Part shown: piece after piece, positions 3,001-57,267 of the stretch
Position numbering within the stretch: position 1 is the stretch's first letter
Layout: each line of letters opens with the position of its first letter
Source of the DNA: a virus
Taxonomy: Duplodnaviria > Caudoviricetes
Direction: 5' to 3' (one strand)
IMG/VR virus record: IMGVR_UViG_3300017912_001009
Coordinates: 1 to 64,000 of that record
Length of the DNA: 64,000 nt
Notes under the pieces: model-generated
What the model was told of the DNA's origin: nothing
Seen by the model: only the letters and a program-made list of their open reading frames with translations
Database searches by the model: none
Position numbers and translations under genes: made by a program

Positions 3001-5588
3001 ATGTCCTGTATGTAGGTTCTTCCTGAGTTATTGACAGAGGATGCTGCGTTGCTTATCGTAGGATGTGCAGTTAGGAATCCTGAGTTACTGTTGCTATAAT
3101 TAGCCAAATCGGTATCTACGTTTAGTGTGTCTCCTGATAACGAGATGTTTGTTCCTGCTACTAGATTGGTATCATCACTGATGTCTATTTCTCCTAGTGT
3201 TATGACTTGACCACTTATCGTGAGATAGTTTCGACTTCCTGCTAGAGTGACATTCGTGGAGTTGTCTGTTCCTGATGGGTCTACGTTTAGAAGAGTCCTT
3301 CCCTGAGCAGCAGTTAGAGTTTCCACTGAGCCAGCATTACTAGTTGTTCTTCCTAGTAAAACGTTGGAACTAACGTTCTGTATCTTGTCAAAGGTGATTG
3401 CATCATCTGCTATTCTAGATGTACCGAATGTTCCACTGGTGATTTTGCTAGTTGCTATGTTTGGTATTCTAGCGGTGGCGAATGTTCCACCAGTAATTGC
3501 ACTAGCACTTAGGTTAGGTATGTCTCCTGCTACTAGTTTATCAAAGAGGTTAGCGAGTGTCGTCTTCTTCAGACTACTACTGCTATTGTCGTGATACACC
3601 AAGAAATCTTGTGTTAGGTCTATACCATTCTCAGTGGTTAGGTCGTCAATTTTAACCTTCAAGGTTGAGCCTGTTCTGTCCAAACCACTTCCTATTGTTA
3701 GACTAGGCTCTTTTCCACTCAATGCTGATGTTAGTCCTGTAATCTTACTCTGTGCAATACTGCCTGACAGTTTGGCATTCGTTACGGCACTGTCGGCTAT
3801 TGCAGCAGTTTGGATTGAGTTATCAGCCATTAGAGCAGCCGTGATTTGGTCATCCTGTATCATAGCAGTTACGATAGCATCGTCTGCAATTTTAGCAGAG
3901 GTCACAGCATCATTCGCTAGTTTAGCAGTGGTGATATCAGAATCTGCAATCTTTCCAGTAGTCACACTTAGGTTTGCTAATTGAGTAGTTCCAACACTTC
4001 CACTTTGTATCTCAGTTGCACCTACTGTGTTTTCTCCAATAGCAGTGGATAGTGTGACATTTCCTGAGCCATCAAAAGATACTGCACTAGATGTCACATC
4101 TCCTGACAGTTGAAAGTTCCTAGCGTTTGCTAGAGCAGTAGCAGATGATACAGTTCCTGTTACATTTCCAATGAATGTACCTGCAACGAATGTCTCAGAA
4201 CCAACTGTCCACCTATCGTTAGTCTCATCCCAAATCAACGTCTTATTGGTTTGGTTTCCTCTCTCTACCTCTATACCAGCGTTTTCCGATGGCGCACCTG
4301 TTTCATCTGAGTTTAGAGTGATTATACTGTCTCCTATATTGACAGTGTTTGAGAGTACAGTAGTTGTAGTACCGCTAACAGTCAGGTTGCCACCGATAGA
4401 CAAGTTCCCTACACTAATAGTATCATTTGAATCACCAAGGCTGAAAGTTCCTAGATTCGCATTGTGAAGAGCAGCCCTTACGTTTGTTGTATCTGTGACA
4501 TCTGCATTTGCCTCTATACCAAGCATGGTCACTAGATTAGCAGGAGTTATCTCCTCTATGTTTCCTGCACCGGAGGAGTCTCTTCCTAGTATTCTGTTTG
4601 TAGCAGATACATTCTGCATCTTGGCATATGTGATTGCATCGTCAGCGACATCTCCTGTTGCTATTGTTCCATCTGTTATCATTGCAGAGGTGATTTGAAC
4701 CTCCTCCACAGTTCCAGTGGAAGCCTTGCCCAATACCCTGTTTGCAGTACCTATGTCTTGTATCTTGTCATAGGTCACTGCATCACTTGCAATCTTAGCA
4801 GTTGTAACATTCCCATCTGCAATCTTATCAGTAGTTACATTTGAGTCTACGATACTTGCTTCTACAACAGCGTTTGATGCTAACTTAGCCGCAGTTACTG
4901 CATCGTCTGCTAAACTAGAAGTTCCTAGACTTGTAATTTGATTATCAGTTACTAGAGTCCTGTTACTACTACCAACAGCAGGTAGTGATATTTTTCCAGT
5001 GTTTCCTGACTTCTCAAAAGTCCCATCAGCGTTTATCCTCATTGTCTCTGAGCCTGAGTTTAATGCTGAGAACTCCCTGCTTGCTTGAGGATAGAACAGA
5101 TACTGGTGCAATCTGCTAGTGGCATTATTTGCCTCTGCTGTATCTATCTTTACCAGTATGAGCGGTATGTCTCCACCCTTTAGTTCTGCAACAGTAGCAG
5201 AGCCAGTAGTTGCTTTACCTGTGACAGCACCGAATCTCCACTTCAAGGTGTTAGCAGTCTCACCACTCTCTGTTCCATCACAAGCGACAATCAAACCATA
5301 CCAGTCATTTGAATTAGCAGCGATAGTAGCAACAGTGGTAGTGAGCGTGGCAGTTGGAACTGTGAATAGTTTTCCTTGTCTGAGTATCTTACCTTCAGCA
5401 ACTTGAAAATGAGTTCTACTGTTAGTTGTGCCTTGAGTCAATGCAAACCCGCTTATTCCCCTGTCTTCACCACTAGCGACATTCAGTGCCTTGATTATTC
5501 CTGAGTGTATGTTATCTGTCCCATCCTTCAGTTGTGTGCTAGAAGGGTTGGTTGCTAGTGTTGAGATAATACCCGGATTTGATGTCAT
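1..5588 (-). CDS. Giant tail fibre / receptor-binding protein, 3'-truncated at the window edge (>1860 aa; absent from the ORF track)
   Basis: ATG at 5588 overlaps the TAA of the upstream gene (TAATG). My hand translation stayed open from MTSNPGIISTLATN to ...ASNSATHLATQQSIKAYV at position 1. It contains IADDAVTxAKI repeats, QEQVEDxV...TYDD repeats and ALDTLNELAAALGDD, motifs typical of phage fibre proteins. Confidence 0.85.
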   Translation of the reverse strand, partial: MTSNPGIISTLATNPSSTQLKDGTDNIHSGIIKALNVASGEDRGISGFALTQGTTNSRTHFQVAEGKILRQGKLFTVPTATLTTTVATIAANSNDWYGLIVACDGTESGETANTLKWRFGAVTGKATTGSATVAELKGGDIPLILVKIDTAEANNATSRLHQYLFYPQASREFSALNSGSETMRINADGTFEKSGNTGKISLPAVGSSNRTLVTDNQITSLGTSSLADDAVTAAKLASNAVVEASIVDSNVTTDKIADGNVTTAKIASDAVTYDKIQDIGTANRVLGKASTGTVEEVQITSAMITDGTIATGDVADDAITYAKMQNVSATNRILGRDSSGAGNIEEITPANLVTMLGIEANADVTDTTNVRAALHNANLGTFSLGDSNDTISVGNLSIGGNLTVSGTTTTVLSNTVNIGDSIITLNSDETGAPSENAGIEVERGNQTNKTLIWDETNDRWTVGSETFVAGTFIGNVTGTVSSATALANARNFQLSGDVTSSAVSFDGSGNVTLSTAIGENTVGATEIQSGSVGTTQLANLSVTTGKIADSDITTAKLANDAVTSAKIADDAIVTAMIQDDQITAALMADNSIQTAAIADSAVTNAKLSGSIAQSKITGLTSALSGKEPSLTIGSGLDRTGSTLKVKIDDLTTENGIDLTQDFLVYHDNSSSSLKKTTLANLFDKLVAGDIPNLSASAITGGTFATARIPNIATSKITSGTFGTSRIADDAITFDKIQNVSSNVLLGRTTSNAGSVETLTAAQGRTLLNVDPSGTDNSTNVTLAGSRNYLTISGQVITLGEIDISDDTNLVAGTNISLSGDTLNVDTDLANYSNSNSGFLTAHPTISNAASSVNNSGRTYIQDITLDSNGHIIGIASATETVTDTQYSVGDGGLTQNNFTNALKSKLDGIEGNANHFVLQKATDSVLGGIKVGTNLSINNTTGVLSADTQSDVNFTSALNSKLAGIATGATAGADFASNVSNISVTNAQLAGSIANSKLANSSVTVNGSTVALGGSITLTTANVAEGANLYYTDERVDDRVNALIVDGEGITTTYNDGGGTLTIDAEDATATNKGVASFAAADFDITSGAVSIKSGGISNAQLAGSIPNDKLLDIAQSKVTGLVSALSGKVGSLSDLSITASAAELNILDGVTGVSAAEISHLDGVTSSIQTQLNAKQAAGNYLTTSSTISDLSGITALDTDITAVSGSHDTIPSAKAVKSYVDLVSFDANDTQYTFSVEDTGSANTKRLKLTGTDGSFTSVNFEGSSNVTVSRINERIIIDSASQPVTSAAFSEGTLTFTKLDNTTFTATLPDATTSAHGLMTDDQFDKLAGIETAATADQTAAEIRTLVESASDSNVFTDADHTKLNAIEAGATADQTASEIRTLVESASDSNVFTDADHTKLDGIAASANNYSISSDLLDEDDMSSNSATKVASQQSIKAYVDTEVAAVVASAPAALDTLNELAAALGDDANFATTTSTALGNRLRVDTNSQGLTATQQGNAITNLGITASLAEINILDDGLSASDIPSLAASKITSGTLGTARIPSLAASKITSGTFANARISEGSVTQHQAALSITESQISDLDAYLTAPRSVTAGGNTLANSETLAFTAGSNITISESGGAVTIASTDTNTQLSTEQVQDIVGAMVSSNTETNISVTYDDTGGKLNFASTDTNTQLTQEQVEDFVNGLIVAGTNITKTYDDSAGTLTIASSGKTQEEIEDIVANLVVAGSNVTKTYDDASGTLTIASTNTNTQLSTEQVEDIVGAMVSSNTETNISVTYDDTNGKLNFSSTDTNTQLSQEQVEDFVGGMLDGTETFISVSYDDTDGNIDFVVPVKDEDNMASNSATHLATQQSIKAY
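120..700 (-). repeat. Intragenic tandem repeats (~35-40 aa; LSTEQVQDIVGAMVSSNTETNISVTYDD / QEQVEDFVNGLIVAGTNITKTYDD)
   Basis: About five related units with synonymous divergence are visible in the translation. Confidence 0.75.
1380..1600 (-). repeat. Two tandem ~37-aa repeats (ATADQTAxEIRTLVESASDSNVFTDADHTKL)
   Basis: Near-identical peptides with many synonymous nucleotide differences. Confidence 0.8.
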
Positions 5589-5950
5589 TAGTTATCCACC
5601 TCTACTCTTATTGTAAACGAAACAGTGTCACCGCTTGCAACAACACCAGTATTCGTGAAGGTGACTCGGCTCAATAACGTGCCGTTTCCATTCGTAGTTC
5701 CGTTCTTGAAAATGCCTATTTCTGAGACTCCTGACGCTGGTATCTGCGCTCCTGTAAAATCGACATTGTAAATCAAAGTAGAACCCACAATAGTAGGTAC
5801 TTGTCCAGTCTTTTGAAATGTGAAGTTATTCAACCCTGTTTGACTGGCAGAGGTTGTATCTCTTCCATCACCAATCGCTACCACTTGGTAGTTCGTCTTT
5901 ATCAAATCCGCAATATCTGCTGCTCCTTCATTCACTACTGTCATCTTCAA
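5588..5950 (-). CDS. Small tail/baseplate structural protein (120 aa)
   Basis: Beta-rich (SEIGIF...LLSRVTF...GDTVSFTIRVEV), translationally coupled between two giant tail genes. Confidence 0.6.
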   Translation of the reverse strand: MKMTVVNEGAADIADLIKTNYQVVAIGDGRDTTSASQTGLNNFTFQKTGQVPTIVGSTLIYNVDFTGAQIPASGVSEIGIFKNGTTNGNGTLLSRVTFTNTGVVASGDTVSFTIRVEVDN

Positions 5951-8900
5951 TCCTCACTTGTATAATACCCTATTACCTGACTTCCTGTATTCTCAAATCC
6001 TACTTCCTCAGTGAATCCTACAAGGTCATCGAAGCCCATGTTTGAACTCTCCCCACTACCAGTGATTGTATACTGAACGAGTGTAGTCTTTAACGATATA
6101 GAATCTGTAAGAGATAGACCAGTGGAAACACTTTCTGCGTTTCTACTGAAAAGAGTCGAACTGCTAGAGCGTTGTTGCGAGCCAAGTTCTGCTAGTCTCT
6201 CAGCAATCGTCTTATCAAAAGTCCCAACTGTCATGGATAACTGACTCGATAGGACATTCTCTATCTCAAAAATCATGTAGTCACCCGCAGGTATACCATG
6301 CTGTGTCATGTTGAGATAAACTATGTCTCCTGCCTCTAGAGTCTCCAACCCCTTCTTCTCAAGGCTCAAGGTTATTTTTCTAGAGTCTTGATTATACAAC
6401 TCTAGCAATTCATTCGCCTTTATTTTTACATCAGATATGTTCCTCAGAGTGGGGTCAACAAATGTGATATGCGTTCCCTTTCCTTTGACATTTCTTTCAA
6501 CGGTTGTAGAGATTTTATCACCTACAACTGTCACTTTATTTGCCTTTGCAAACAATGAACTGTTTTTCTTTACAGAGAAGATTCTATGTGTTCCATAGGA
6601 AATTGTCTGTTTTCTCGTTAAGGCTTTTGATTTTAAGTCACGAAATACCACTTTTTTGTTTCTAACTTTAAAATCCAATCCTTTCTTTCCTGCCATTTCA
6701 TTCAAAGTTTCATATGCTGGCTTGTTACTGAAATTATTGGTTGCGATGAAAGTCTTCTTATTTCTCTTAATTATCTCATCATTAAGAACAGGGATGAACC
6801 ATAAATCCACATCTCCATCTGTATGAACATCAGTAACTGTGATGTCGCTTCCTGACACAGAACCAACAACTCCAATCGGATAACCCTCATGTGTGTAGAT
6901 TACATCCCCTGCTTCTAGATTCTCTACTGTTGCCTTACAGGTAATGACGTTATTATTCACAGACTGCACTATATTTCCTGTGAAATCCGATTGCGTCTGT
7001 ATCAAGTCCGAGGTCATTCCTGCATCCCTGATTATCTTATCCATGTGAGTCTCTATTTCTTCTCCGATAATCATGCTTGTTCCAATATGGCAAGTCGTTA
7101 TGTTTTGCAGACTTGGTTTTCTTCTGAGTTCTATATTGATTATCTCCCCGAATGAAACAACACCCTTGCCGTTTAGAACACCATCGTATGTGAGCCTAAA
7201 CTTATTTCTTCTTATCCCTCCTGTTGTGCTATTCAGAGTCAAATCAACAGTCATTGTCTTCACATCTTTAGTCTCACCATCAGATACCATCACCTCAAAT
7301 GTATCTCCGTCATTGTATGGTAGCATCTCTACTGATTCTCGGAATGACCTACTGAAAGCAGACTGACAGGCATGACCACCTTCAATGACAGTAGGGGATG
7401 GGGCAGAGTCTAGATTCAATAACACATACGCACTAAATACCCCTTCATTCGTGTGTTGATGATTCTCACCGAAGCCTAGATAGTTAGGATTACCGAGAGT
7501 GCCTGTTCTATACCCACTTGAGGTTTCTGTGTAGTCCAAACCTGTGCTGAATAACTGGTTCAAGACTATCTCGTTCGGTGTGTCTCTGAATGTTGTCTCT
7601 GCTAATCTCATTAGGCGGAAGAATGGCAGTTCACTGCTAGAAATTGGTTCATCTAGGATTATAGTGTGAACTCTACTTGTATCACTGACAGTGCTTGTTG
7701 TATGTGTGTGACTTACTATCTTCCCCATGTAGGCGATGTTCAATGTGTCGTTGGATGATATGCCTAGCGTATCCTTGTTGCTTCCTGTTACATCATTAGA
7801 ACCAAGACTAGTCTCGTTGCTGGACTCTATGCCTCTGTTGCCTACGAGATAGTATCCTGTTAGATTAGGAGCGAATTCCAACCAACTGTGTGCAGAATCA
7901 GTGTCATCCAAGTCTATCGTCAGCGTTCTATTGCCATTACTGAGTACGACATTTCCATCTGCGGTATTGATTAGGGGTTTGATTAGCATCCTTGCTGAGT
8001 AGACTCCACCACCGTCATTGGATGCTAGGTCAACGTGATTCTGCACCCTGCTTGTAGAGACCGTATCTCCTTTCTTCTTGTCCATGAAATAAGTGGGAGA
8101 CCCTTCTGTAACAGCATTAGCGTTTGCTCCTAGAGCATCACCCATTGAGGATTTTGTCTCCAACGTGTGCGTTCCAGTTACTGCCTTGTAACTAGCAGAA
8201 ATAGACTCATACACCATAGTATTAGGCGTGTGCTGGTCAAAGTCATTCGGTGTGGTAAAAGTGCCTCCTTGGTAATCGTCAAAAGCGTCTACAAACTGTC
8301 TAGTTCCCAAGAAGCAACTAGTCTGAAACATGTCTTCAGGAACATCAGGGCCGACTGAACTTATCTTCTTGATATCACGGAATACAGCAATGCAGTTTTC
8401 ATAGGGATGCACATTGTCTGCATAGCCCATCTTGGAAGTGGTTGTCAGTGTAGTGCTTCCCTTGAAGTTCTGCATGAGTCCTGCTAAAACTCTAGATAGG
8501 TGAAGGTAAGGAGGGTTAGAAAATAGGCTATTGCTCCACTGCTGGCTATCGTGATATGGAGATTTCCTTGCGTTCAAAAGTTCAGAAGCAGTATCTGCCG
8601 AATTGTACTCTGCATTGAATATGAATGGCAATAGAACACCCGGAGGGTTGTAGACATCAGGACTGCCATCACCGTTTGTCAATCTAGCATATCTGAATGG
8701 GAATGAGGCATCATTACTCTTGTAGCCGGGTCTCATCAGGAGAACCCTACTCATATCCATTGTATCAGAACTGTTTGTTGTCTTTAGTGTATCAAATCCA
8801 TCTACTGTGAAAGATGGTGTTGTCTTTGAATTACCATACTCAGGAATTAGATATGCCTCCACATCTGTCGCATCTGTCGTATCATGCATAGTTGCAGTGA

Positions 8901-11900
8901 CAGTTCCCGTTGAACTAACTGTTTGTGATGAGCCACCAGTAGTAGCAATCAAAGCACCATTAGTTGCATTGAAGATTGTGCTGTATGCGGGTATGGTAAG
9001 TGTGCCACCATTAGTCCAAGATAGGGACACATTGTTACTCGCAACTGAGAACTTCAAGTTGTCCTTGCTTGCCTCTCTGCTTCTTAATAACGCATATGCC
9101 CCATAGTTCTCCTTATACGCAGAGGTGTTCTCCAAAGAATCTGCATCAACTGGATTGAAATGCCAATCGAATGTGGCTTCAACTAGTCTTGCAATACCGA
9201 ATCTCTTGATTTGATTAGTCGTCTTGTTTGCTGCCTTTATCGAAGCCCTCTCAAAGTTATTGTCTGTCTTATCCATTGATTTACTCTTTCCATCGTATTC
9301 AGAATGTGTCGTTTCAGTAGCAGATATACCTCCTTCGCTTTCCAATAGACAGGCAAGGTCATCGTAGTTGAGTGTCTGACTTCCTATGTTGTTGTATCTC
9401 AACTTTGAGTATGGATACAAGTCTCCTGTAGCAAACAACTCATACGCCTGTGCTTTCCCATCTAGATTTTCCCAATCTATCAATGGCTCAAATTTAGTTA
9501 GACTTGTTTTGGAAGTAGGTATTCTAGTTGGAGGCACTAGGGTTGACACACCAGTTGTAGCATCAAATATGCTCCCTGCTGTATTCACATGTGTAAAGTT
9601 GCTGTTCACCATATTGCTTCCGAATATTGGCCTCGATGATTCGGTAAGTGTGGTGGAAGAAGGTGCATCACCAGTGCCAAGTATTGGATACGCTACTGCA
9701 TAGCCTCTGATGTTCTGTTGCTTGGAACTCCTGTTGTATATTCCACCTGATGTCTTCTTTATTGTACCGCTACTAAACTTCTGCAAGTCCCAATATCTGA
9801 ATGTCTCTCTTGGAGTGTAGATATCATCAGAAGCAATCAAGTCTAGATTAGTGGAAGTAGTATGTCCTGTGTCAAATCTATGTAGGAAACCACCGTCATT
9901 GATGCCGTTGTTTACCAAGTAGAAGGAGAAGCCTGTACGAGTATCCGATGTGTTATTCTCGACCCTGCCCATTACAACGGGACAAGTGGGTGCTATTCTC
10001 ATTCTAGCACCGCCGTCATCCTTCTCTATGATGTCCAAGACGTTGAATCTCTCTGATGCGAAAGTCATCATGCTTACATCTGTCGTAGATGTTCCAAGTT
10101 CATTTGACAACTGAAAGGCAAAGACTGAATCTTCAGTGGAAACACCACTATCTAAGATATCGATGCTTATTGGCTTTTGAATGTCATATCCTAGAGTCCG
10201 GTTCTCAAGGAAAGAACCACTGTTTGAAGTTCCCTCTAATTTCGTCTTGTTGAGGCTAACATCGAACGAGAAACTATCTTGAAGAATAACCCCTTTGTCA
10301 CTCACACCCCTAAAGTCAGTTGTAGATGTAATAGCAGGATTGCTTCCTAATGCCTTAGTTCCCGATAAGAACGTCACTTCGGTAAATGGATTGTAATACC
10401 AAATGTTGGTTGTTGTAGACATATGTGCTAGTGGTTTGTGTGTCAGTGTTATTTCTGTGGCTGTTGCAGATGCCACCTCACCAATGAAGACCCCTGTGTT
10501 TCTAGTGAAGAGAAGCATCTTGGCAGTAGGTGTGAAGCCATCTCCTGAAGCATGGGTAATCACCTTCCCACTCACACTAACGCTAGTCAGTGTCTCAGTG
10601 TTAGAAAGAGGCATCACTGGATTCAATGTGCTATGTATCATATCCTCGGTGAAGAGAAGATTCTGATTCACTTGGGTATTCAATAACGAGGAGGAGTTGT
10701 CTCTGCCTTCCAGTGTTAACAGTGTAAGTCCATTCTCTGTCTCTGTCTCACTCAATTCAACTGTGCCGTCAAAAGCCTCTTCTTGTAGACTGTATGTTCC
10801 TTCATAATAGTAGAACCTAGAGTTACTGGTGTTCTGATAGAACTTTCTATCACCATCTTGAAACTTGACATACTCCATATCCTTATCCACATAGTCAACA
10901 GTATTCTGATGTGTAGATACTCTAGGAAATACTATTTTCGTATTATACAACTTGCTGTCTTCTTTGTTTATTGTAGTCCCTGAAACTGTCAATCTGTTTG
11001 CATCTGCATAATGCACTTGTGTATCAGAGTCAAAGTCCTCTGTATTCAACACCTCAGTCCAAGGTGCTATCTGAACTGTCGCATTTGAGAACTCATGAAC
11101 TGAAGTAGAAACGGTGAATGTGTTTGCGTGTAGGGTTTTGTTTGCTTTGACAGTTAGACTCTGTGTTGTTCCGCTTTTCGTATTTACAGTATTGACGACA
11201 TAATAGTAGTCATCAACTAGTATGATAGAGTTTGTTGGTAGTTTCTCAGATAGTTTGTAGTCATGTGAATCATCCATATCAGCAAACTGTATTGTTGTGC
11301 TGCTCGCTCTGCTGGCTTTGAAAGGAAGCGTCTTGAATGACATATTATCTGAGAATAGATTCTTCATCACCTTCAGAGTCTGACCTTCCTTATACTTCTC
11401 AGGGAGTATTCCTGAGTTATTCATCGCCTTGAATTTGCACATCTTACTCATCTTATTCTGTGGGCTATTGACAATTACATCGGTGACAAGAGGAACGATG
11501 TCGTTTCTCCTCGGCCTTGGGTCGGATGTGATGTATCGTGAAGGGCCATTCCTATTGCCATCAAGGGTCGAAGCAGTAGCACTGGTGCTATCTGATTCGT
11601 GTCTCTTCATATTCGGGAATGCCTTGTGCCAAAACATCGGGTCGAAACTCCCATCAGCATCATCTGTGGTTCTGAGATGGTCAACGAGAGTGGCATCCAA
11701 TCTTGTTCTACTGATGCTTTCTATTGTGCCTTTCAACTTGGCATGAGTTCTGAATACTATGTTCTGTATTCCCTTTCCTATCTTCACGGTGAAGTTGCTC
11801 GTTGTTGCACTCTTTGCTTTGTATGCAACCTCTAGATGTATGTCATTTCCAGTTATCTCCTTGATGTTCCCATACCATTCATCTGTTCCACTGTCAAAGA

Positions 11901-12876
11901 GTGACATTCCCTCGCATAACTTGTCAGTGTCACCTGAACTGTTTGTTGTGAATTTTACAGTGCTGCTACCCTCTGAGTATAGTGCTATCTCTGTGTTGGA
12001 TGTCATTGTCACAGTGTCAGAGTAATCATACCATCTAAGCCTAGTCAGAGTGTATTTTTCCATGTAGTCTAATTGGTCATCCTGCTCTAACCTGTCATTG
12101 TAGAAGTAGAACGTAGGTGTGGCAACTAGATTCAGGACATCGTAGTTGTCTGTTGATGCTTGGTTATCACCACGAAGACCATAACTAACCGCCATGACAT
12201 CAGTTGCTGTTTTTGCTGGCCCTTTGAATACCTCAAAGTTAGTTCCCTTGGGTATTGGTGTAGGATACTTGGGGCTAAACTCTAGACCATCTCCAAAGTC
12301 AGCAAACGTGACAATTGATGTTATCTTAGCAAAGTGTGGTCTTGCTGTGTCTGATTGTGTAGTAGAGTCGTATATCTCAGGGTTGAGTAGAATAAAGTAG
12401 TCATAGTTCTCTATATCTAGAGCAAGGGTATCAGTGGCAGGTGCAGATGAACTGTTAGTTACTGTTGAGTATACGAATTTTCTATTTGTCTCTCCTTCGC
12501 TTGCGTTTTCATCGAATACCTTGACTTTGTATGGTGGAGTTATCTCCTTGTTTGTCGCATATGATGTGAGGGTCTTGTTATGTGGAAGTATCCTATTTCC
12601 TATCATATCTGCTCTATCATTAGATATCGAAGTTCCACATGGCCCTTTTCTAATCTCAGTGAAGATAGCAGATGCAACGACATCAGATGTAGCACTACCA
12701 GTTCCGTTCTGCTCTGCCTCTACGAATGTCGCTTTCAACTTTGGATTCACAGATACATCCTTGAATGCCTTTCCAGTGGAAAACTCAGTAGTCATACTGG
12801 CATAGGCTTCATTGGCATCATCTTCGTTAACCTCTATTGACAGAGGATAAACCATAGTACCGTTTGCCTTTGCCAT
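5947..12876 (-). CDS. Very large tail tip/hub-type structural protein (~2310 aa)
   Basis: ATG at 12876 follows GGTGATTAAG; S/T-rich, beta-rich composition; lies in the distal tail block; the C-terminal region resembles phage tail hub proteins. Confidence 0.6.
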   Translation of the reverse strand: MAKANGTMVYPLSIEVNEDDANEAYASMTTEFSTGKAFKDVSVNPKLKATFVEAEQNGTGSATSDVVASAIFTEIRKGPCGTSISNDRADMIGNRILPHNKTLTSYATNKEITPPYKVKVFDENASEGETNRKFVYSTVTNSSSAPATDTLALDIENYDYFILLNPEIYDSTTQSDTARPHFAKITSIVTFADFGDGLEFSPKYPTPIPKGTNFEVFKGPAKTATDVMAVSYGLRGDNQASTDNYDVLNLVATPTFYFYNDRLEQDDQLDYMEKYTLTRLRWYDYSDTVTMTSNTEIALYSEGSSTVKFTTNSSGDTDKLCEGMSLFDSGTDEWYGNIKEITGNDIHLEVAYKAKSATTSNFTVKIGKGIQNIVFRTHAKLKGTIESISRTRLDATLVDHLRTTDDADGSFDPMFWHKAFPNMKRHESDSTSATASTLDGNRNGPSRYITSDPRPRRNDIVPLVTDVIVNSPQNKMSKMCKFKAMNNSGILPEKYKEGQTLKVMKNLFSDNMSFKTLPFKASRASSTTIQFADMDDSHDYKLSEKLPTNSIILVDDYYYVVNTVNTKSGTTQSLTVKANKTLHANTFTVSTSVHEFSNATVQIAPWTEVLNTEDFDSDTQVHYADANRLTVSGTTINKEDSKLYNTKIVFPRVSTHQNTVDYVDKDMEYVKFQDGDRKFYQNTSNSRFYYYEGTYSLQEEAFDGTVELSETETENGLTLLTLEGRDNSSSLLNTQVNQNLLFTEDMIHSTLNPVMPLSNTETLTSVSVSGKVITHASGDGFTPTAKMLLFTRNTGVFIGEVASATATEITLTHKPLAHMSTTTNIWYYNPFTEVTFLSGTKALGSNPAITSTTDFRGVSDKGVILQDSFSFDVSLNKTKLEGTSNSGSFLENRTLGYDIQKPISIDILDSGVSTEDSVFAFQLSNELGTSTTDVSMMTFASERFNVLDIIEKDDGGARMRIAPTCPVVMGRVENNTSDTRTGFSFYLVNNGINDGGFLHRFDTGHTTSTNLDLIASDDIYTPRETFRYWDLQKFSSGTIKKTSGGIYNRSSKQQNIRGYAVAYPILGTGDAPSSTTLTESSRPIFGSNMVNSNFTHVNTAGSIFDATTGVSTLVPPTRIPTSKTSLTKFEPLIDWENLDGKAQAYELFATGDLYPYSKLRYNNIGSQTLNYDDLACLLESEGGISATETTHSEYDGKSKSMDKTDNNFERASIKAANKTTNQIKRFGIARLVEATFDWHFNPVDADSLENTSAYKENYGAYALLRSREASKDNLKFSVASNNVSLSWTNGGTLTIPAYSTIFNATNGALIATTGGSSQTVSSTGTVTATMHDTTDATDVEAYLIPEYGNSKTTPSFTVDGFDTLKTTNSSDTMDMSRVLLMRPGYKSNDASFPFRYARLTNGDGSPDVYNPPGVLLPFIFNAEYNSADTASELLNARKSPYHDSQQWSNSLFSNPPYLHLSRVLAGLMQNFKGSTTLTTTSKMGYADNVHPYENCIAVFRDIKKISSVGPDVPEDMFQTSCFLGTRQFVDAFDDYQGGTFTTPNDFDQHTPNTMVYESISASYKAVTGTHTLETKSSMGDALGANANAVTEGSPTYFMDKKKGDTVSTSRVQNHVDLASNDGGGVYSARMLIKPLINTADGNVVLSNGNRTLTIDLDDTDSAHSWLEFAPNLTGYYLVGNRGIESSNETSLGSNDVTGSNKDTLGISSNDTLNIAYMGKIVSHTHTTSTVSDTSRVHTIILDEPISSSELPFFRLMRLAETTFRDTPNEIVLNQLFSTGLDYTETSSGYRTGTLGNPNYLGFGENHQHTNEGVFSAYVLLNLDSAPSPTVIEGGHACQSAFSRSFRESVEMLPYNDGDTFEVMVSDGETKDVKTMTVDLTLNSTTGGIRRNKFRLTYDGVLNGKGVVSFGEIINIELRRKPSLQNITTCHIGTSMIIGEEIETHMDKIIRDAGMTSDLIQTQSDFTGNIVQSVNNNVITCKATVENLEAGDVIYTHEGYPIGVVGSVSGSDITVTDVHTDGDVDLWFIPVLNDEIIKRNKKTFIATNNFSNKPAYETLNEMAGKKGLDFKVRNKKVVFRDLKSKALTRKQTISYGTHRIFSVKKNSSLFAKANKVTVVGDKISTTVERNVKGKGTHITFVDPTLRNISDVKIKANELLELYNQDSRKITLSLEKKGLETLEAGDIVYLNMTQHGIPAGDYMIFEIENVLSSQLSMTVGTFDKTIAERLAELGSQQRSSSSTLFSRNAESVSTGLSLTDSISLKTTLVQYTITGSGESSNMGFDDLVGFTEEVGFENTGSQVIGYYTSED

Positions 12877-12877
12877 C

Positions 12878-15379
12878 TTAATCACCAAACGTATAGTACA
12901 ACAGTGTATCACTGAAGTTAGGAGTTAGAGTCGTGATAGATGCACAGGGATTAGCAGATTTGTGAAACGCTATTTCATACAACTCTCCCATGAATTGAGT
13001 GGCCTTTCGATTTGCTGCGTTAAGACTGCCATCTTGACCGATATAACAATCACTAGTTCCTAGTCTGAACTTGCCTATGTTCACCTTCACCCTTTTCACA
13101 GGTTGATTGTTTAGATAGAAGGTAAGGGTGTTCTTATTGAAAGAGATACCCACCTTCGCTATCTGCTCAAGATACAATGCCTCTCTCTGCTGGTCTCTGT
13201 ATATGGTGGATGTGACTGTTGCAGCAGGGTCTGCTGCAAGAGTTATAGAATTACCACTGACACTAGAAACAGTTCCTATCAATGTACCAGCGTTATCGTA
13301 TATGCTATTACCAGCACCAATGCCATCTGCTTCTCCTGAACCAACAGTTATCGTTCTGATATTCGTGCTGAATGCCCCTAACGTTAGTCCTGAACTTATT
13401 CCTGTACTGCTGATTGCTTGGTCTCCTGCTGACGCTGCTACAATAGTAACGGTGCTTCCAACTCTAGATACTGTGAGAGTGCCGTTATGACCTGAAGAAC
13501 CTGCGATAACTGCTCTTAGATTATCAGCAGTAGTTGCAGTATCACCTACGACATTCGTGAAGAAAACAACATCGTTACTTCCCTCTGTTGCAGTAGAGCC
13601 ATTGCTCTCACTGTTAGCACCCTTCGTTGGTTTGTATTTCTTGATTGTGCCACTACTGTCTTCCAATGTAATGAATGCAGTGGGGGTAACTGCGGGTGTT
13701 GATGCTACGAAGTTATCAAACGGATTAGAGCCAATCGTCACGATGCTATCACTGGTATACTCTGTTGTCCTAGCAAAGACCTGATTGTTTTGATTCGTAG
13801 TCACAGCGTTTGGTGATGTGAGTGTTATGACATTACTATTGTGTGTTGCATTCGTATCTGAAAAGCCTGTCAGATTACCAAAACCGTTGGCATGTCTTAT
13901 TGCAAGTTTCAAAGCATTGGCACAGCCAGCAAGAGTGGATGCTTTATGCACTCTTACAACGCTTGTACCATCCTGTGTTGTTCCTACGCTGTTAGCAGTA
14001 GCATTGGCACTTGGTACAAATTTGAATCTCTTCGTTGTTAGAGTTCCTGACTGATTAGCCAATGTGATTGTGAGATACTCATTTATGTTGCTACCAGTAA
14101 CTGCCGCAGCACCACCTGAGAAGGTACTGATGGACATTTTGTTACCTGAGTCAAGTGAACCTCCTTCAAATGGCCCTACTCCACTACTAGTGCCATTATG
14201 GTTTCCAGCAGTTCCAGCAGTATCCTTTGTTAAAGTGATAGAGGTTGCAGGACTTCCTGCATATACAGCAGTACAGTTCATACCTGCATTTGTGGAATTT
14301 ATTGCTGCTGCCAACTCACTAAGAAAGGCCGTGTTCGCTGTTTCTGATGTTGCAACGGCAATGTCATCATTGTTATACCCATAGTCATTCCCAACAGTTT
14401 GACCACCACCCTCTGCTTGAAAGCCACTAGTTGACCTTATTCTATCACCAGTGCTGACACCGGGAAAGTCAGAGGTATCCATGAAGAAGAATCTTTTCTT
14501 ATCCCCGGTTCCTCCACCATTGCTATTGCGAATCGTTACTGCAATAGCGTCTGTTGCAGATGTGGTATTAGTTACCAAGAAAGGAGAAAAACCACTACTA
14601 ATGGTGATTGTCGAAGTAGCCTGAACAGCAGCAGTAGTAGTTGTATCCAAAGCACCATTGCTAGTAGTGGGTAGAGTAGCAACGGTTATTGTAGCAGTAC
14701 CCAATGTTGCTGGAACAGCAGCAGTATTAGTGAAACTATCCAAGTTACCCGTTATTTCTGCTGTTGCGGTTGGTAGAGAGCCTGTTGCACTTGATGCTAT
14801 CTTAGTCTTATCTGTGGTGATACCATTGTAGAAACCATCAGCATCATAGTATCCAGTTAGAGATTTCTTAGAGGTAAAAACAGCAGCATCTGTATCAATT
14901 GTGTGTGTTATCGGTGTTCCAACAGAATCTGTTATCTCCACTACCATCTTGTACTCTGCGGGTTGATTGAAGTTAGAAGATGTGGTATTCTGCAAGTAGA
15001 ACTTTAGATACGAGTTAGAGAAAAGCATCATCTTGTGTGTGCTTCTACCTGCTCCGAAATAACTGACACTCTCATAGTTGGATGTCGTATCTTCTTGGTC
15101 GTCTAGTGATAGGTTCGGACTAGGGGGAGTCTTGGTGCTATCGAGCCTTCCTTGTCCTGATGTTCTATGACCAATCCCATTCACATCATAAGGGGTGATT
15201 ATGGCTTCAATGCTGAATGGGCCTCCATAGTCCCAAAGAGGATGCTTTGACGTATCTATCGTATTACTACCAACCAAGTCATTACTGTTGTAGTCATCAT
15301 ACTCTATCTTTAGATGCCCATCGCATAATACAGGAAATACCAATGCCCTTGTATCTCCTACATGTGTGCTTGTTGCCAT
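12878..15379 (-). CDS. Tail protein with an interrupted LamG/concanavalin-like domain (833 aa)
   Basis: N-terminal FSIEAIITP and C-terminal LTFYLNN..YIGQ..FMGELYEIAF match the LamG pattern; a ~550-aa T/A/G/S-rich insert separates them. Confidence 0.55.
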   Translation of the reverse strand: MATSTHVGDTRALVFPVLCDGHLKIEYDDYNSNDLVGSNTIDTSKHPLWDYGGPFSIEAIITPYDVNGIGHRTSGQGRLDSTKTPPSPNLSLDDQEDTTSNYESVSYFGAGRSTHKMMLFSNSYLKFYLQNTTSSNFNQPAEYKMVVEITDSVGTPITHTIDTDAAVFTSKKSLTGYYDADGFYNGITTDKTKIASSATGSLPTATAEITGNLDSFTNTAAVPATLGTATITVATLPTTSNGALDTTTTAAVQATSTITISSGFSPFLVTNTTSATDAIAVTIRNSNGGGTGDKKRFFFMDTSDFPGVSTGDRIRSTSGFQAEGGGQTVGNDYGYNNDDIAVATSETANTAFLSELAAAINSTNAGMNCTAVYAGSPATSITLTKDTAGTAGNHNGTSSGVGPFEGGSLDSGNKMSISTFSGGAAAVTGSNINEYLTITLANQSGTLTTKRFKFVPSANATANSVGTTQDGTSVVRVHKASTLAGCANALKLAIRHANGFGNLTGFSDTNATHNSNVITLTSPNAVTTNQNNQVFARTTEYTSDSIVTIGSNPFDNFVASTPAVTPTAFITLEDSSGTIKKYKPTKGANSESNGSTATEGSNDVVFFTNVVGDTATTADNLRAVIAGSSGHNGTLTVSRVGSTVTIVAASAGDQAISSTGISSGLTLGAFSTNIRTITVGSGEADGIGAGNSIYDNAGTLIGTVSSVSGNSITLAADPAATVTSTIYRDQQREALYLEQIAKVGISFNKNTLTFYLNNQPVKRVKVNIGKFRLGTSDCYIGQDGSLNAANRKATQFMGELYEIAFHKSANPCASITTLTPNFSDTLLYYTFGD

Positions 15380-54694: not shown

Positions 54695-55125
54695 GCTTCA
54701 TCCCCCATTATTTCCTGTCTCATTGCTTTTGAAACTCTGCTAACGACATCCTCTTGACCACGCCTGAAAGACCAATCGTTGATGGGTATGACATCACAGT
54801 AAGAGTCTCCACTCATCATTATTGATATAGTCTGTGAATTGCCATCCTTCTTGAAATCCATATTGGAATGCTCATGGTTCAATGCTTCGTATGCCATAGT
54901 CTCGTAATCGTCAATCGCTATACCGCCTTGAATGAGACAGTTATCTCTTCCATCCCAGTATGGAAATAGAGAACCTATTGTAAAACCCTCTTCCTCAACC
55001 ATTCTCCTGATGAATTCCTTCAAGTTTCCACCAAACCTTGGATTGTAGTAAGGTCTGTCTTCATCATCCATTTCGTATTTAGCCCACTTGTGTCTATCAC
55101 TCATACCCTTCCCATTTTTCATCAC
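54691..55125 (-). CDS. Acidic hypothetical protein (up to 144 aa)
   Basis: Directly downstream of cassette copy 4. Confidence 0.7.
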   Translation of the reverse strand: MMKNGKGMSDRHKWAKYEMDDEDRPYYNPRFGGNLKEFIRRMVEEEGFTIGSLFPYWDGRDNCLIQGGIAIDDYETMAYEALNHEHSNMDFKKDGNSQTISIMMSGDSYCDVIPINDWSFRRGQEDVVSRVSKAMRQEIMGDEA

Positions 55126-55166
55126 CTTATGAGGTTAGAGCGAGCAAAGTTGTCTAACCATATGGT
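55120..55166 (-). promoter_or_regulatory. Repeated regulatory cassette, copy 4
   Basis: CATCACCTTAT at 55120-55130; ACCATATGGT at 55157-55166. Confidence 0.7.
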
Positions 55167-55379
55167 TGTGTTAAAATCAGACTTTACGCATAACAGTAGT
55201 TTTTGCGGTGGTCAGTATGGGTGGTGGACAGTTTATAAGGTGATGAATGCGGATAGGGTTGATTTGATTCAGTTGTGGTTTTTCATTGGCTGAGTCTTAT
55301 TTGTGCAGTAGTTTCTATACCCGCTTTTATTCGACAATCGCTAGTTGTCCTTACTAATTACTACCGTAAACTACTATCA

Positions 55380-55770
55380 CATCAAAGGGTATCAATCACA
55401 TTCCCTATATGTATATTATATCATATATGTCATATGGATATCTTATGACGTATGATGATATCACATATCGTAGTGTAATTACAACATTTCCTATATTCTC
55501 ATATTTTATCGTATTTTATCATCGAGTGAGAAAATTGAAATGTGCGAAAACGTGCTGGAAATGTTGATTTTATTGAATATTATCATTTTATCATTATTAT
55601 CATCATCTATACTACTACTACTATGTTACATACTCTACTCTCTCTCTCCTATGGAGAGCGTGATAAAATTGAGAAAATGATAAAATAGGCGAAAAGTGCA
55701 ACACTGCTCTAAAGTTGTATTTTCTCATTGGCTGATAATATATGATAATAAATGATAAAAACACAAACAG
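55380..55770. other. AT-rich non-coding strand-switch region with converging TTATCA/TGATAA repeats (candidate origin)
   Basis: TTATCA at 55516, 55580, 55588, 55597; TGATAA at 55661, 55678, 55733, 55743, 55753; gene orientation flips here. Confidence 0.55.
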
Positions 55771-55782
55771 GTTGGAAATAAC

Positions 55783-56103
55783 ATGACAGAAGAAAAGAGT
55801 AATTGGGGTGCGAAGACACCAAGCAAAACAGAAGACGAAATGACAGACTCTCAGCGAAGGATTGCTGAAGTTTGCGAAGAAATGAAGACGATGCTTCTTC
55901 AGAAGAACAGACAGTATGGAGATTCAGTGTTGAATCCCAAGAGGTTCTTCTCACAGGCATCGCAAGATGAGCAAATCAAAGTCAGAATCGATGACAAGTT
56001 GAACAGGCTTGTTCTCGGTAATGACTCACTAGAATCAGATGATGATATCATCAAGGACTTGATAGGATATCTGACTCTGCTCCTTGTTTACAGGAGTCAA
56101 TAG
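55783..56103 (+). CDS. Nucleotide-modification-associated domain 1 (DUF1599-like) protein (106 aa)
   Basis: KNRQYGDS...VRIDDKLNRL...DLIGY pattern. Confidence 0.7.
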   Translation: MTEEKSNWGAKTPSKTEDEMTDSQRRIAEVCEEMKTMLLQKNRQYGDSVLNPKRFFSQASQDEQIKVRIDDKLNRLVLGNDSLESDDDIIKDLIGYLTLLLVYRSQ

Positions 56104-56109
56104 TAAACA

Positions 56110-56665
56110 TAACACACTCCATCAACGTTCGTAGAACCAAGAAACTCTTAGCGGGGTTTCGGTGAACGTGGAGACTTCAGGGGTTTCCGAAGTAAAAAAC
56201 GAGAAAGATACTAGGGTTATGATAGAAGCAAAGAACGTCAAATCTAGCGATGAGATTAGTAGTTGTGGAAAACGGGTTCGTTCGATGAGACTTGGTTCAC
56301 AGTTCCAAGTCGTGGAACAATCGAGTGGCTTTGCGCTATAAAAAATAAAGCAGGTTAATCCGGTCTAGTAAATAATATTGGCAATGTGTTCTACCATATT
56401 GCAGTTCCCTACCCGTTGGTACAGGCACAGGACTGACTCGTTTCCCCTTTACATTCAAACATCGGTTTACTGCGGTAAAAAAAGCGAATCAATAGCAGTG
56501 ATGGGATTCATCTCCCCCATGCTTTTATCCGATATCACGCTCCAAGTCGGTTTGAGTCCGACAAGAGCAGAGTTTTACTACGAGTAAAAAAGACAAACGT
56601 GCTTGGCTAATCAGTCGTGTGGTTGTAGTTGAGGCTGTGGCGGTCTCTGTCTTTCTCTGCGATTA
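56110..56665 (+). ncRNA. Putative large structured non-coding RNA (~560 nt)
   Basis: No convincing ORF; more than 10 hairpins and nested long-range helices, some with G-U pairs favouring the + strand. Confidence 0.5.
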
Positions 56666-56688
56666 CATTCAATTAACAATAGGAGGAA

Positions 56689-57267
56689 ATGAAAATGAAT
56701 ATATTTACTTTAGATGAAAGCCCAAGAAAGAGTGCAGAACTAATGTTGGATAAGCATGTAGTCAAGATGCCAACTGAGAGTTTGCAGATGTTGTTTACGA
56801 TAGTTGACCATCTAGGTTTGGAAGCAGGTTGGAGACCTGTGATGTTGAATCATCCATCTACCATTTGGGCTAGAGAGACACGACAGAACTTCCAGTGGTT
56901 GCGTGAGCATACCTATGCATTGTGTCATGAGTATACTCACAGGTATGGTAGGATTCACAAGGTCGAAGTCCTGATGAATCAGTATTCGACACAGATGGAT
57001 GAGGCAGAGATGCTTCTTCCTGATGATGGTCTTACACCGTTCGCTATTGCTATCTCTCCTCACATGGAGTGTAGGAAGGCAGATGGTTTTGATGAGATGA
57101 CAACTATCGAGAAGTATCGACAATACTATCTTGATGACAAGTGGCGATTCGCTGCTTGGACTAAGAGAAAAGAACCGGAGTGGTGGCCGGAAGACCACTA
57201 CCTAAACAAGTCCTTTGAATATGAACAAGAGGCAAATGCCTTGCTAACGAGGTTGGGATTAATATGA
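56689..57267 (+). CDS. Pyrimidine-dimer DNA glycosylase / endonuclease V-like protein (192 aa)
   Basis: MNIFTLD..P..SA....DKHVVKMPTESLQML, NHPSTIW, ALCHEYTHRYGRIHK. Confidence 0.8.
   Translation: MKMNIFTLDESPRKSAELMLDKHVVKMPTESLQMLFTIVDHLGLEAGWRPVMLNHPSTIWARETRQNFQWLREHTYALCHEYTHRYGRIHKVEVLMNQYSTQMDEAEMLLPDDGLTPFAIAISPHMECRKADGFDEMTTIEKYRQYYLDDKWRFAAWTKRKEPEWWPEDHYLNKSFEYEQEANALLTRLGLI

Follow-up and report, generated by a model that had tools for sequence, protein, structure and literature searches.

The virus record IMGVR_UViG_3300017912_001009 of IMG/VR (Duplodnaviria; Caudoviricetes) is 89,815 bp long with a completeness of 93% according to CheckV. The window analysed here is the 64,000-nucleotide (nt) part of this record from position 1 to 64,000, and it contains a stretch at 56107–56688 that is free of genes. 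The stretch follows a gene of the phrog_1485 family, whose open reading frame (ORF) stops at 56103, and it ends where the ORF of a gene related to pyrimidine-dimer DNA glycosylases begins, at 56689. A preliminary description, made from the sequence of the window, had proposed that a new + strand, multi-helix viral non-coding RNA (ncRNA) with long-range helices is encoded between these genes. Comparative analysis largely upholds that proposal: the stretch is a real ncRNA locus on the + strand, conserved and highly structured, with helices that covary, and it matches no Rfam family. The locus is, however, better seen as an array of tandem units that fold independently than as one ornate RNA.

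A search with the protein encoded downstream returned ten IMG/VR loci, of which five carry the stretch at 77–92% DNA identity and two others have it in part. Scans for conserved words added four IMG/VR contigs and 37 marine metagenome loci, all 37 of which are true homologs as judged by nhmmer. The full-length copies total 47, which reduce to 37 unique sequences and to 28 when sequences are kept below 99% identity; they fall into two clades, A and B (individual loci are designated L plus a number). All relatives originate from marine samples, and each genome examined has a single copy. Synteny is strict in the 47 loci, running from the stop codon of a phrog_1485-like gene through the RNA to the next start codon. 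A covariance model (R1) built from clade A alone, over the region 56310–56545, recovers every clade B copy with 97–120 bits and reaches distant members (L097, 142 bits; L100, 112; L095, 99+45; L117, 39; L116, 38) that sit behind more divergent copies of the upstream gene. The pattern GTTCCCTACCCGTNGGTA returned solely five contigs already known. The RNA is virus-only: two exact-pattern scans covering 185,579 prokaryotic species genomes yielded no true copy (a single match in a metagenome-assembled genome of the Flavobacteriaceae, in the second scan, was rejected by the covariance model as a chance match), and blastn of the stretch against 50,697 phage records gave no match. For the phrog_1485-like gene itself, 126 relatives were confirmed. 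In L103–L115, distant relatives of this gene are followed by 366–603 nt without an ORF of at least 70 amino acids (for example L107:2774–3285 and L114:1385–1987), where R1 matches weakly or not at all (L107, E=0.008; L106, E=0.03). More versions of the RNA, themselves diverged, may lie in these gaps.

The ORF-free stretch seen in the preliminary description proved real, and no conserved small ORF lies within it. Stop codons are numerous in all six frames. An alternative is that the stretch codes for protein in a decayed or unusual way, as a pseudogene, a small ORF or a gene read with recoding or an alternative code. In favour of this, the stretch contains open frames of 59 and 69 codons in the window, and the upstream protein covers only positions 9–99 of the 238-position PHROG profile. 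However, the longest open frame in the 37 unique homologs varies from 49 to 148 codons and shifts in position, strand and frame, and the indels, a 26–27-nt hairpin insert and gaps of 1–2 nt, are not multiples of three. Variable sites number 86, 85 and 93 over the three codon positions, with no codon periodicity and no third-position bias, and all 17 homologs of the upstream protein terminate at one and the same residue. A coding explanation is thus refuted for practical purposes.

Covarying helices and independent domains

The structure model was derived with RNAalifold on each clade and by inspection of compensatory changes, giving 22 helices, to which the pseudoknot of the middle domain was added later (Table 1). 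Pairing was tested on alignments made with MAFFT and without fitting to the structure, with 18 sequences in clade A and 15 in clade B. In clade A, 97.5% of the 2,158 cells from 123 pairs in 21 helices are paired and 36 pairs show compensatory changes, compared with 90.6±0.4% and 22±2.2 in shuffled controls and with 41–49% and 5–8 in slid controls. The clade B model, for which the clade A helices were carried over by homology one at a time, comprises 103 pairs in 19 helices, with 98.7% of cells paired and 27 compensatory pairs (13.5±2.2 in shuffled and 2–6 in slid controls). Covariation among homologs, as anticipated for such an RNA, is therefore above the controls in both clades. In a mixed-clade alignment of 28 sequences, each of the four helices that make up the 3' domain is 95–98.5% paired with 2–5 compensatory pairs; the 5' part scores worse there because MAFFT misaligns it between the clades. 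An alignment of 24 R1 matches has compensatory changes at 29 of 34 pairs, although, being fitted to the model, it leans towards it. The cells contain 179 G·U but only 12 A·C combinations (15:1) and the pairing therefore works on the + strand only, in line with the G-U bias already seen in the single sequence. A brute-force search for additional covarying column pairs was swamped by phylogenetic noise, and a crude helix scan gave mainly G·U-rich false positives.

The model comprises three domains, termed D5, Dmid and D3', each of which is independently closed, and no inter-domain helices. In L095 a protein gene splits D5 from Dmid, and the contig behind L009 and L112 has a D3'-like piece alone (found with nhmmer; R1 has no match in that record), ∼13 kb from a phrog_1485-like gene. 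It is because of these three findings, the missing inter-domain helices, the inserted gene and the lone D3'-like piece, that we describe the locus as an array; the single continuous fold of ∼560 nt envisaged originally is not retained. The total size of the locus is 580–830 nt across the family. The ORF inserted in L095 (L095:3163–3671) encodes a coiled coil with an N-terminal C-x6-DGH-x-C motif, is related to a 142-residue ORF of clade B, and belongs to no Pfam or PHROG family.

Within D5, compensatory changes in the clade A alignment support H2, H3, L1, D3a–c, H7a, H7b, H8, H9 and H10. L1 reads AACGAG/CUCGUU, is replaced by GAAGG/CCUUC or CAGG/CCUG in subgroups, and is AAGGAU/AUCCUU in clade B; L2 is GGG(U)/(A)CCC, and GGAG/CUCC in clade B. 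The strands of the pseudoknot PK1 are invariant and complementary in 28 of 28 sequences and change together in distant homologs, to GGAAU/AUUCC in L097 and GGGAU/AUCCC in L100. H8 carries an extra hairpin in most members and is missing from the L050 group; in clade B a homologous hairpin precedes H7a instead of lying inside H7b, and L117 is without H9 and H10. Three further motifs were considered and set aside. A kink-turn at the internal loop of H2 was rejected because C-G/U-A covariation supports a Watson–Crick pair there, and a C/D-box reading of GUGAUGG was rejected as the motif is not conserved. Pairing of a 5' bulge, AUCA(AC), with GUUGGU at 56414, given by RNAalifold on the mixed alignment, is complementary in both clades, but it is broken in the L002 subgroup and overlaps H2, and was left out.

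The stems drawn in the preliminary description, counted as eleven, divide into seven that were confirmed with covariation and four that gave way to better partners. The former are H2 (ACGTTC/GAACGT, two compensatory pairs), H3 (GAAACTC/GGGTTTC, five of seven pairs compensatory), H8 (GACTTGG/CCAAGTC), H10 (GCAATGTG/CATATTGC), the long-range L1 (AAACGAG/CTCGTTT, four of six pairs compensatory), and in D3' the helices Pa (GCAGAG/CTCTGC) and Pb (AAGACA/TGTCTT). The long-range helix AACGGGT/ACCCGTT, which is also present in the minimum-free-energy fold, is displaced by CGGGUU/AAUCCG (56357–62), with G-to-A and C-to-U compensation; TTTTAC/GTAAAA is displaced by ACUAC/GUAGU (56625), in which five of five pairs covary; and TTTAC/GTAAA competes with UUACUGC/GCAGUGA, the closing pair of which covaries (see Pm1 below). 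For AATCT/AGATT, three of the five positions pair in just 7–8 of 18 sequences, and GTCGG/CCGAC falls in a hypervariable linker and is missing from the homologs.

Dmid is closed by Pm0, which is AUCGG/CCGAU in clade A; clade B has GCAGG/CCUGC or GUAGG/CCUAC in its place. The closing pair of Pm1 is CG in 12 sequences, UA in 9 and UG in 7. All seven pairs of the pseudoknot PKm form in each of the 18 sequences, and a swap of A-U to U-A is perfectly correlated between the strands (7 versus 11 sequences). A kissing loop between GAAUC and GAUUC is not conserved and was rejected. Each of the three domains has one pseudoknot together with long runs of invariant unpaired nucleotides, and the invariant loops common to both clades include CGNUAUAAAA, GGUAAAAA, GGCAUAG and UCAUCUC.

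The boundaries of the units are marked by a 9-nt motif, AUCACACUC. Its first copy lies at the 5' edge of conservation, where ACUC/CACACUC is invariant in 28 sequences, its second follows Dmid, and L005, L064 and L066 have a third after an optional module, M1. The motif shows no genome-wide enrichment and is therefore not a general promoter. M1 (∼110 nt) occupies the gap between Dmid and D3', is closed by AAGG(C/U)G...C(A/G)CCUU, contains CUGACGAG, and is carried by L005 (2455–2575), L064, L066, L079, L055, L029 and L053. A second module in the same gap, M2 (∼125 nt), is closed by AUAUCAGA...UCUGAUAU and is carried by L001 (2800–2930), L002, L066, L052, L050 and L095 (3775–3865), so that L066 has both. 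Neither module has a match in Rfam. The trailer element UUACAUUCAA occurs twice, at 56449–56458 and 56663–56672, directly 3' of the closing helices of D5 and D3', and relatives keep AUUCAA/ACAUUC at both sites.

Table 1. Coordinates of the RNA locus and its two neighbouring genes in the window (paired strands are separated by a slash)
Feature	Position	Strand	Remarks
Upstream gene, 106 amino acids, phrog_1485 family	55783–56103	+	PHROG E=1e-17
Boundary motif, copy 1, AACACACUC (consensus AUCACACUC)	56111–56119	+	CUC continues into H1
D5, 331 nt	56117–56447	+	Helices 91.7–100% paired in clade A; homologous helices 90–100% in clade B
H1, D5 5' stem-loop	56117–20/56170–73	+	
H2, D5 5' stem-loop	56125–30/56164–69	+	
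H3, D5 5' stem-loop	56141–47/56154–60	+	
L0, GGGG/CCCC	56180–83/56444–47	+	Long-range helix closing D5
L1	56198–203/56437–42	+	Long-range helix closing D5
L2	56214–16/56412–14	+	Closes junction with D3a–c, H7a/H7b (H8, H9) and H10
D3a	56228–32/56262–66	+	
D3b	56237–39/56254–56	+	
D3c	56242–44/56249–51	+	
H7a	56273–78/56357–62	+	
H7b	56279–86/56320–27	+	
H8	56289–95/56305–11	+	
PK1 5' strand, GGAAC	56314–56318	+	In loop enclosed by H7b
H9	56328–32/56347–51	+	
H10	56381–88/56395–402	+	
PK1 3' strand, GUUCC	56404–56408	+	After H10; pairs with 56314–56318 (pseudoknot)
Dmid, 73 nt	56461–56533	+	Most conserved part in distant homologs
Pm0	56461–65/56529–33	+	Closes Pm1 and Pm2
Pm1	56467–73/56495–501	+	
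PKm	56480–86/56520–26	+	Pseudoknot, Pm1 loop with strand after Pm2
Pm2	56502–05/56516–19	+	
Boundary motif, copy 2, AUCACGCUC (consensus AUCACACUC)	56534–56542	+	Retained 3' of Dmid by both clades and by distant homologs
Hypervariable linker	56543–56565	+	Window, single hairpin GUCGG/CCGAC; relatives, 0–230 nt of optional stem-closed modules
D3', 96 nt	56566–56661	+	MAFFT, both clades, 28 sequences; likewise within clade B
Pa	56566–72/56655–61	+	Closing helix; 96.9% paired, 2 compensatory
Pc	56576–81/56625–30	+	95.7% paired, 5 compensatory; crosses Pb (H-type pseudoknot)
Pb	56589–95/56648–54	+	98.5% paired, 4 compensatory
D3' hypervariable loop	56596–56624	+	Between Pb 5' and Pc 3' strands
Pd	56631–37/56641–47	+	Hairpin between Pc 3' and Pb 3' strands; 95.3% paired, 3 compensatory
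Trailer, UUACAUUCAA and Shine-Dalgarno-like AGGAGG (56680–85) of next gene	56662–56688	+	ACAUUC and AGGAGG invariant in clade A
Downstream gene, 192 amino acids, pyrimidine-dimer DNA glycosylase-related (DenV-like)	56689–57267	+	Pfam PF03013 E=1.5e-8; phrog_624 E=1.9e-50

RNA libraries, genomic setting and possible role

Eighteen marine metatranscriptome runs from 11 studies contain 5–12% of the words sampled from a 2-kb stretch around the locus. Marine metatranscriptome coverage, suggested as a check in the preliminary description, was found for part of the stretch: contigs from four studies lie on 56117–56446, which is D5, with a k-mer depth of 2.3–22.8, compared with 0–3.8 for the flanking genes. 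These contigs carry the 26-nt H8 insert and therefore come from relatives of the virus. The interval 56447–56644 is uncovered in the four RNA runs and the contigs end at 56421–56446, although contigs say nothing firm about transcript ends. In RNA run X7 the Illumina adapter AGATCGGAA in contig 12 directly follows ...CCCGUUGGUAC (...GUUGGUAC), at position 56421. This is a weak hint, and maybe an assembly artefact, that many RNA fragments end around 56421, inside D5 and before the 3' strand of L1. Together the libraries lend modest support to transcription and to a possible accumulation of D5.

The genome encodes a portal protein, a terminase, an HK97-like capsid protein and a tail tube protein, as well as an ATP-dependent DNA ligase, a class II ribonucleotide reductase and a family-B DNA polymerase. 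In a comparison with 50,697 phage records the capsid and portal proteins match solely archaeal tailed viruses, at 23–29% identity, namely the Haloarcula viruses HVTV-1 and HCTV-1/5 together with viruses that have been assigned to Methanomassiliicoccales and Methanofastidiosa. The virus thus looks like a magrovirus-like tailed virus of marine Euryarchaeota, its host being deduced from capsid and portal similarity, which agrees with the archaeal origin suggested earlier. At the left end of the window (3–12912, − strand) lie two huge ORFs, of 1,862 (open-ended) and 2,321 amino acids. Transcription switches strand at ∼55.2–55.8 kb, at the minimum of the cumulative GC skew, and the RNA locus sits on the rightward arm, at the head of a nucleotide-metabolism operon. 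At the GC-skew minimum there is also a divergent, AT-rich intergenic region of ∼650 nt (55125–55780; GC 0.36 over 55001–56000) that is rich in the short repeats TATCA(T/C), GATAA and TTTTATC, and this region, which is separate from the RNA locus, is a candidate for a replication origin, an early promoter region or both.

The high conservation of the DNA sequence and the distance of only ∼330 nt from this AT-rich, repeat-rich region would also suit an element acting at the DNA level, such as a replication origin, a packaging site or a protein-binding array. That explanation is already disfavoured and is very improbable. Compensatory changes preserve helices with strands up to 240 nt apart, the excess of G·U over A·C confines pairing to one strand, the stretch has no iterons or direct repeats beyond the 9-nt motif, contigs from RNA libraries cover it, and the AT-rich region is itself the better origin candidate.

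The RNA begins directly past the stop codon of the upstream gene. An ORF of 98–133 amino acids ends at the start of the RNA in 40 of the 47 loci, and in six of the other seven the locus is cut short there. The phrog_1485-like gene is strongly conserved in both clades (17 homolog loci align as one family), with a nearly invariant C-terminal half. An AlphaFold model of the protein is a three-helix bundle with a mean predicted local distance difference test score (pLDDT) of 67; a fold search with it gave insignificant matches (E about 3–6), several of them to MazG-like nucleotide pyrophosphatases, and a sequence profile search against the PDB gave no match. On the other side, the family match of the DenV-like gene begins at profile position 1. 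The gene 3' of the RNA differs by lineage, being DenV-like in clade A, the 142-residue ORF (a coiled coil with a Cys/His motif) in clade B and a 95-residue ORF in L005. Whichever gene follows, the end of the RNA (Pa) lies no more than about 35 nt from the next start codon, 27 nt in the window.

We propose that the RNA is co-transcribed with the neighbouring genes, as no spacer or obvious promoter separates it from them. The transcript would then be cut or trimmed into one or more stable RNAs, of which D5 would accumulate most, and the domains would act in trans during infection as folded RNA or as a ribonucleoprotein (RNP), in the capacity of a scaffold, decoy or catalyst, and would do more than tune the next gene. 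In addition, D3' may protect or present the 5' end of the mRNA of the next gene. Co-transcription, processing into stable units and a trans-acting role of this kind are, taken together, the probable explanation of the locus.

The main rival, which we consider a good deal less probable but still a serious contender, is that the domains are cis-acting intercistronic or 5'-untranslated-region elements that control translation, stability or processing of the downstream message, such as a leader that senses a ligand or a protein, and would have no function in trans. The short distance from D3' to the next start codon is kept whether the gene is DenV-like, the 142- or 95-residue ORF or that of L095; in L095 D5 directly precedes an ORF; Dmid and D3' are aptamer-sized and pseudoknotted; and the RNA abuts its neighbours without a spacer. 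Nevertheless, a total of 580–830 nt and the number of modules are far above those of known leaders, the RNA stays the same while the downstream gene changes by lineage, the ribosome-binding site lies outside every conserved helix, and no riboswitch or leader model of Rfam matches.

Several points weigh against the trans-acting, processed array and the structure on which it is built. The constant position of D3' just 5' of a start codon fits a cis role. The RNA data are assembled contigs, which attest presence in libraries rather than strand, ends or level, and the excess of D5 may partly reflect word sharing among relatives, because D5 is more conserved at the DNA level than the neighbouring genes and word matches are biased towards it. 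The archaeal host is deduced solely from the likeness of the capsid and portal proteins to those of archaeal tailed viruses. The structure was derived from the same sequences that were used for testing it, and these represent few lineages; moreover, isolated column pairs covary by descent alone and single-column covariation is noisy. For these reasons the case rests on whole helices and on their replication in a second clade. Finally, a folding energy better than that of shuffled sequences had been set beforehand as a test, and the locus failed it: single-sequence z-scores are −0.96 for the + strand and −0.92 for the − strand, and −0.23, −0.91 and −0.82 for D5, Dmid and D3' (z of −0.2 to −1.0 overall). 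The folding energy is at the level of shuffled sequences, and the comparative evidence overrides it. Indeed, folding-energy z-scores missed the locus wholly and comparative analysis alone resolved its structure.

Comparison with known structured RNAs

No match was obtained in the whole window or in ten homolog loci with the 4,227 models of Rfam 15 at their gathering thresholds, which include ROOL, GOLLD, OLE, HEARO, raiA, IMES, RNase P, the signal recognition particle (SRP) RNA, transfer-messenger RNA (tmRNA), 6S, group I and II introns, riboswitches and ribozymes. The impression gained from the single sequence, that RNase P, SRP RNA and group I introns are absent, is thereby confirmed with covariance models. 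At E≤10 the sole match in 55900–56900 was a 17-bit caiA match over the ribosome-binding site, nothing relevant, and ARAGORN detected neither tRNA nor tmRNA genes in the 64 kb of the window. A group I or II intron is ruled out because both neighbouring genes are complete, and the neighbours vary by lineage. A riboswitch or a leader that occludes the ribosome-binding site is not supported either, as AGGAGG at 56680–85 is outside all conserved helices.

A self-processing array, in which one or more domains are self-cleaving ribozymes and AUCACACUC marks the sites at which a polycistronic transcript is cut, would fit the copies of the motif that stand where D5 starts and that follow Dmid and M1, and the presence of a pseudoknot in every unit. 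By its strand order (Pc 5', Pb 5', loop, Pc 3', Pd, Pb 3') D3' recalls the nested double pseudoknot of hepatitis delta virus (HDV)-like ribozymes and its embedded hairpin, with Pc, Pb and Pd in the places of P1, P2 and P4, and M1 contains CUGACGAG...GAAAC, reminiscent of a hammerhead. However, the P3/L3 equivalent of D3' (56596–56624) is hypervariable in length and sequence, Pd abuts Pb so that there is no J4/2 to hold a catalytic C, Pa is an extra closing helix, and neither the window nor the ten homolog loci match an Rfam ribozyme. In M1 the GAAAC is replaced in L005 (where it is GAGAAAAC) and in L065, stem II is not evident, and the hammerhead models of Rfam do not match L005, L029, L053 or L066. 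HDV-like and hammerhead assignments were therefore both rejected, and self-processing by the array is improbable.

Large pseudoknot-rich ncRNAs with invariant loops are rare, and past cases have turned out to be ribozymes, RNP cores and, lately, RNA-only cages. The locus has the attributes of a large, ornate structured ncRNA, being 580–830 nt long and non-coding with covarying helices in two clades, and its three pseudoknots (PK1, PKm and Pb with Pc) and loops that are invariant across clades point to tertiary structure. D5, alone or with Dmid and D3', could conceivably represent a large RNA of a new class that is catalytic or assembles with itself, as a ribozyme or as a particle made of RNA only or of RNP, from abundant ocean viruses of Marine Group II archaea, although we regard this as unlikely. 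If true, no large ornate RNA would have been known before from a virus of archaea; in the literature searched no large pseudoknot-rich ncRNA was described for archaeal viruses, and that on magroviruses and Poseidoniales viruses made no mention of ncRNA. With more than 40 variants in nature, replication of the fold in two clades, insertion and deletion variants that define a minimal core, and its occurrence in marine RNA libraries, the RNA is a ready target for chemical probing and cryo-electron microscopy (cryo-EM). Both host and virus are uncultured yet globally abundant; few experimental handles on these viruses exist, among them an RNA that can be produced and studied in vitro.

OLE RNA, a membrane-associated RNP component of ∼600 nt from extremophilic Firmicutes (PMC9723947), is similar in size, ornate structure and invariant loops, and likewise lies in an operon with protein genes on the same strand on both sides. 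Unlike OLE, the present RNA is viral rather than cellular, matches no model of that family, and has a weakly MazG-like and a DenV-like neighbour instead of genes resembling OapA, OapB or OapC. The IMES-1 to IMES-4 RNAs and other RNAs abundant in marine metatranscriptomes (Rfam) share with it that they are known from marine sequence data alone, occur in marine RNA libraries and have no assigned function, whereas the present locus matches none of their models, is far larger and modular, and has a defined viral genomic context. Fremin et al. (2023) reported 10,006 candidate structured RNAs of 29–151 nt from viruses in IMG/VR (PMC10690425). The source and the kind of evidence, covariation in viral intergenic regions, are the same here, whereas the present locus has three pseudoknotted domains over 580–830 nt. 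Single helices or domains of it could be among those candidates.

ROOL and GOLLD, the large ornate RNAs of phages, prophages and bacteria that form RNA-only multimers in cryo-EM structures (PMC12286853), were named in the preliminary description for their likeness in size. The likeness stands for size and ornateness, and fails for family membership, as there is no covariance-model match even at E≤10. Like ROOL and GOLLD, the RNA described here is several hundred nt long with many helices, pseudoknots and conserved unpaired nucleotides, is carried by a virus and has no assigned function. Unlike them, it comes from what appears to be an archaeal virus rather than a bacterial phage, has no tRNA genes nearby, and is built of three separable domains in place of one closed fold.

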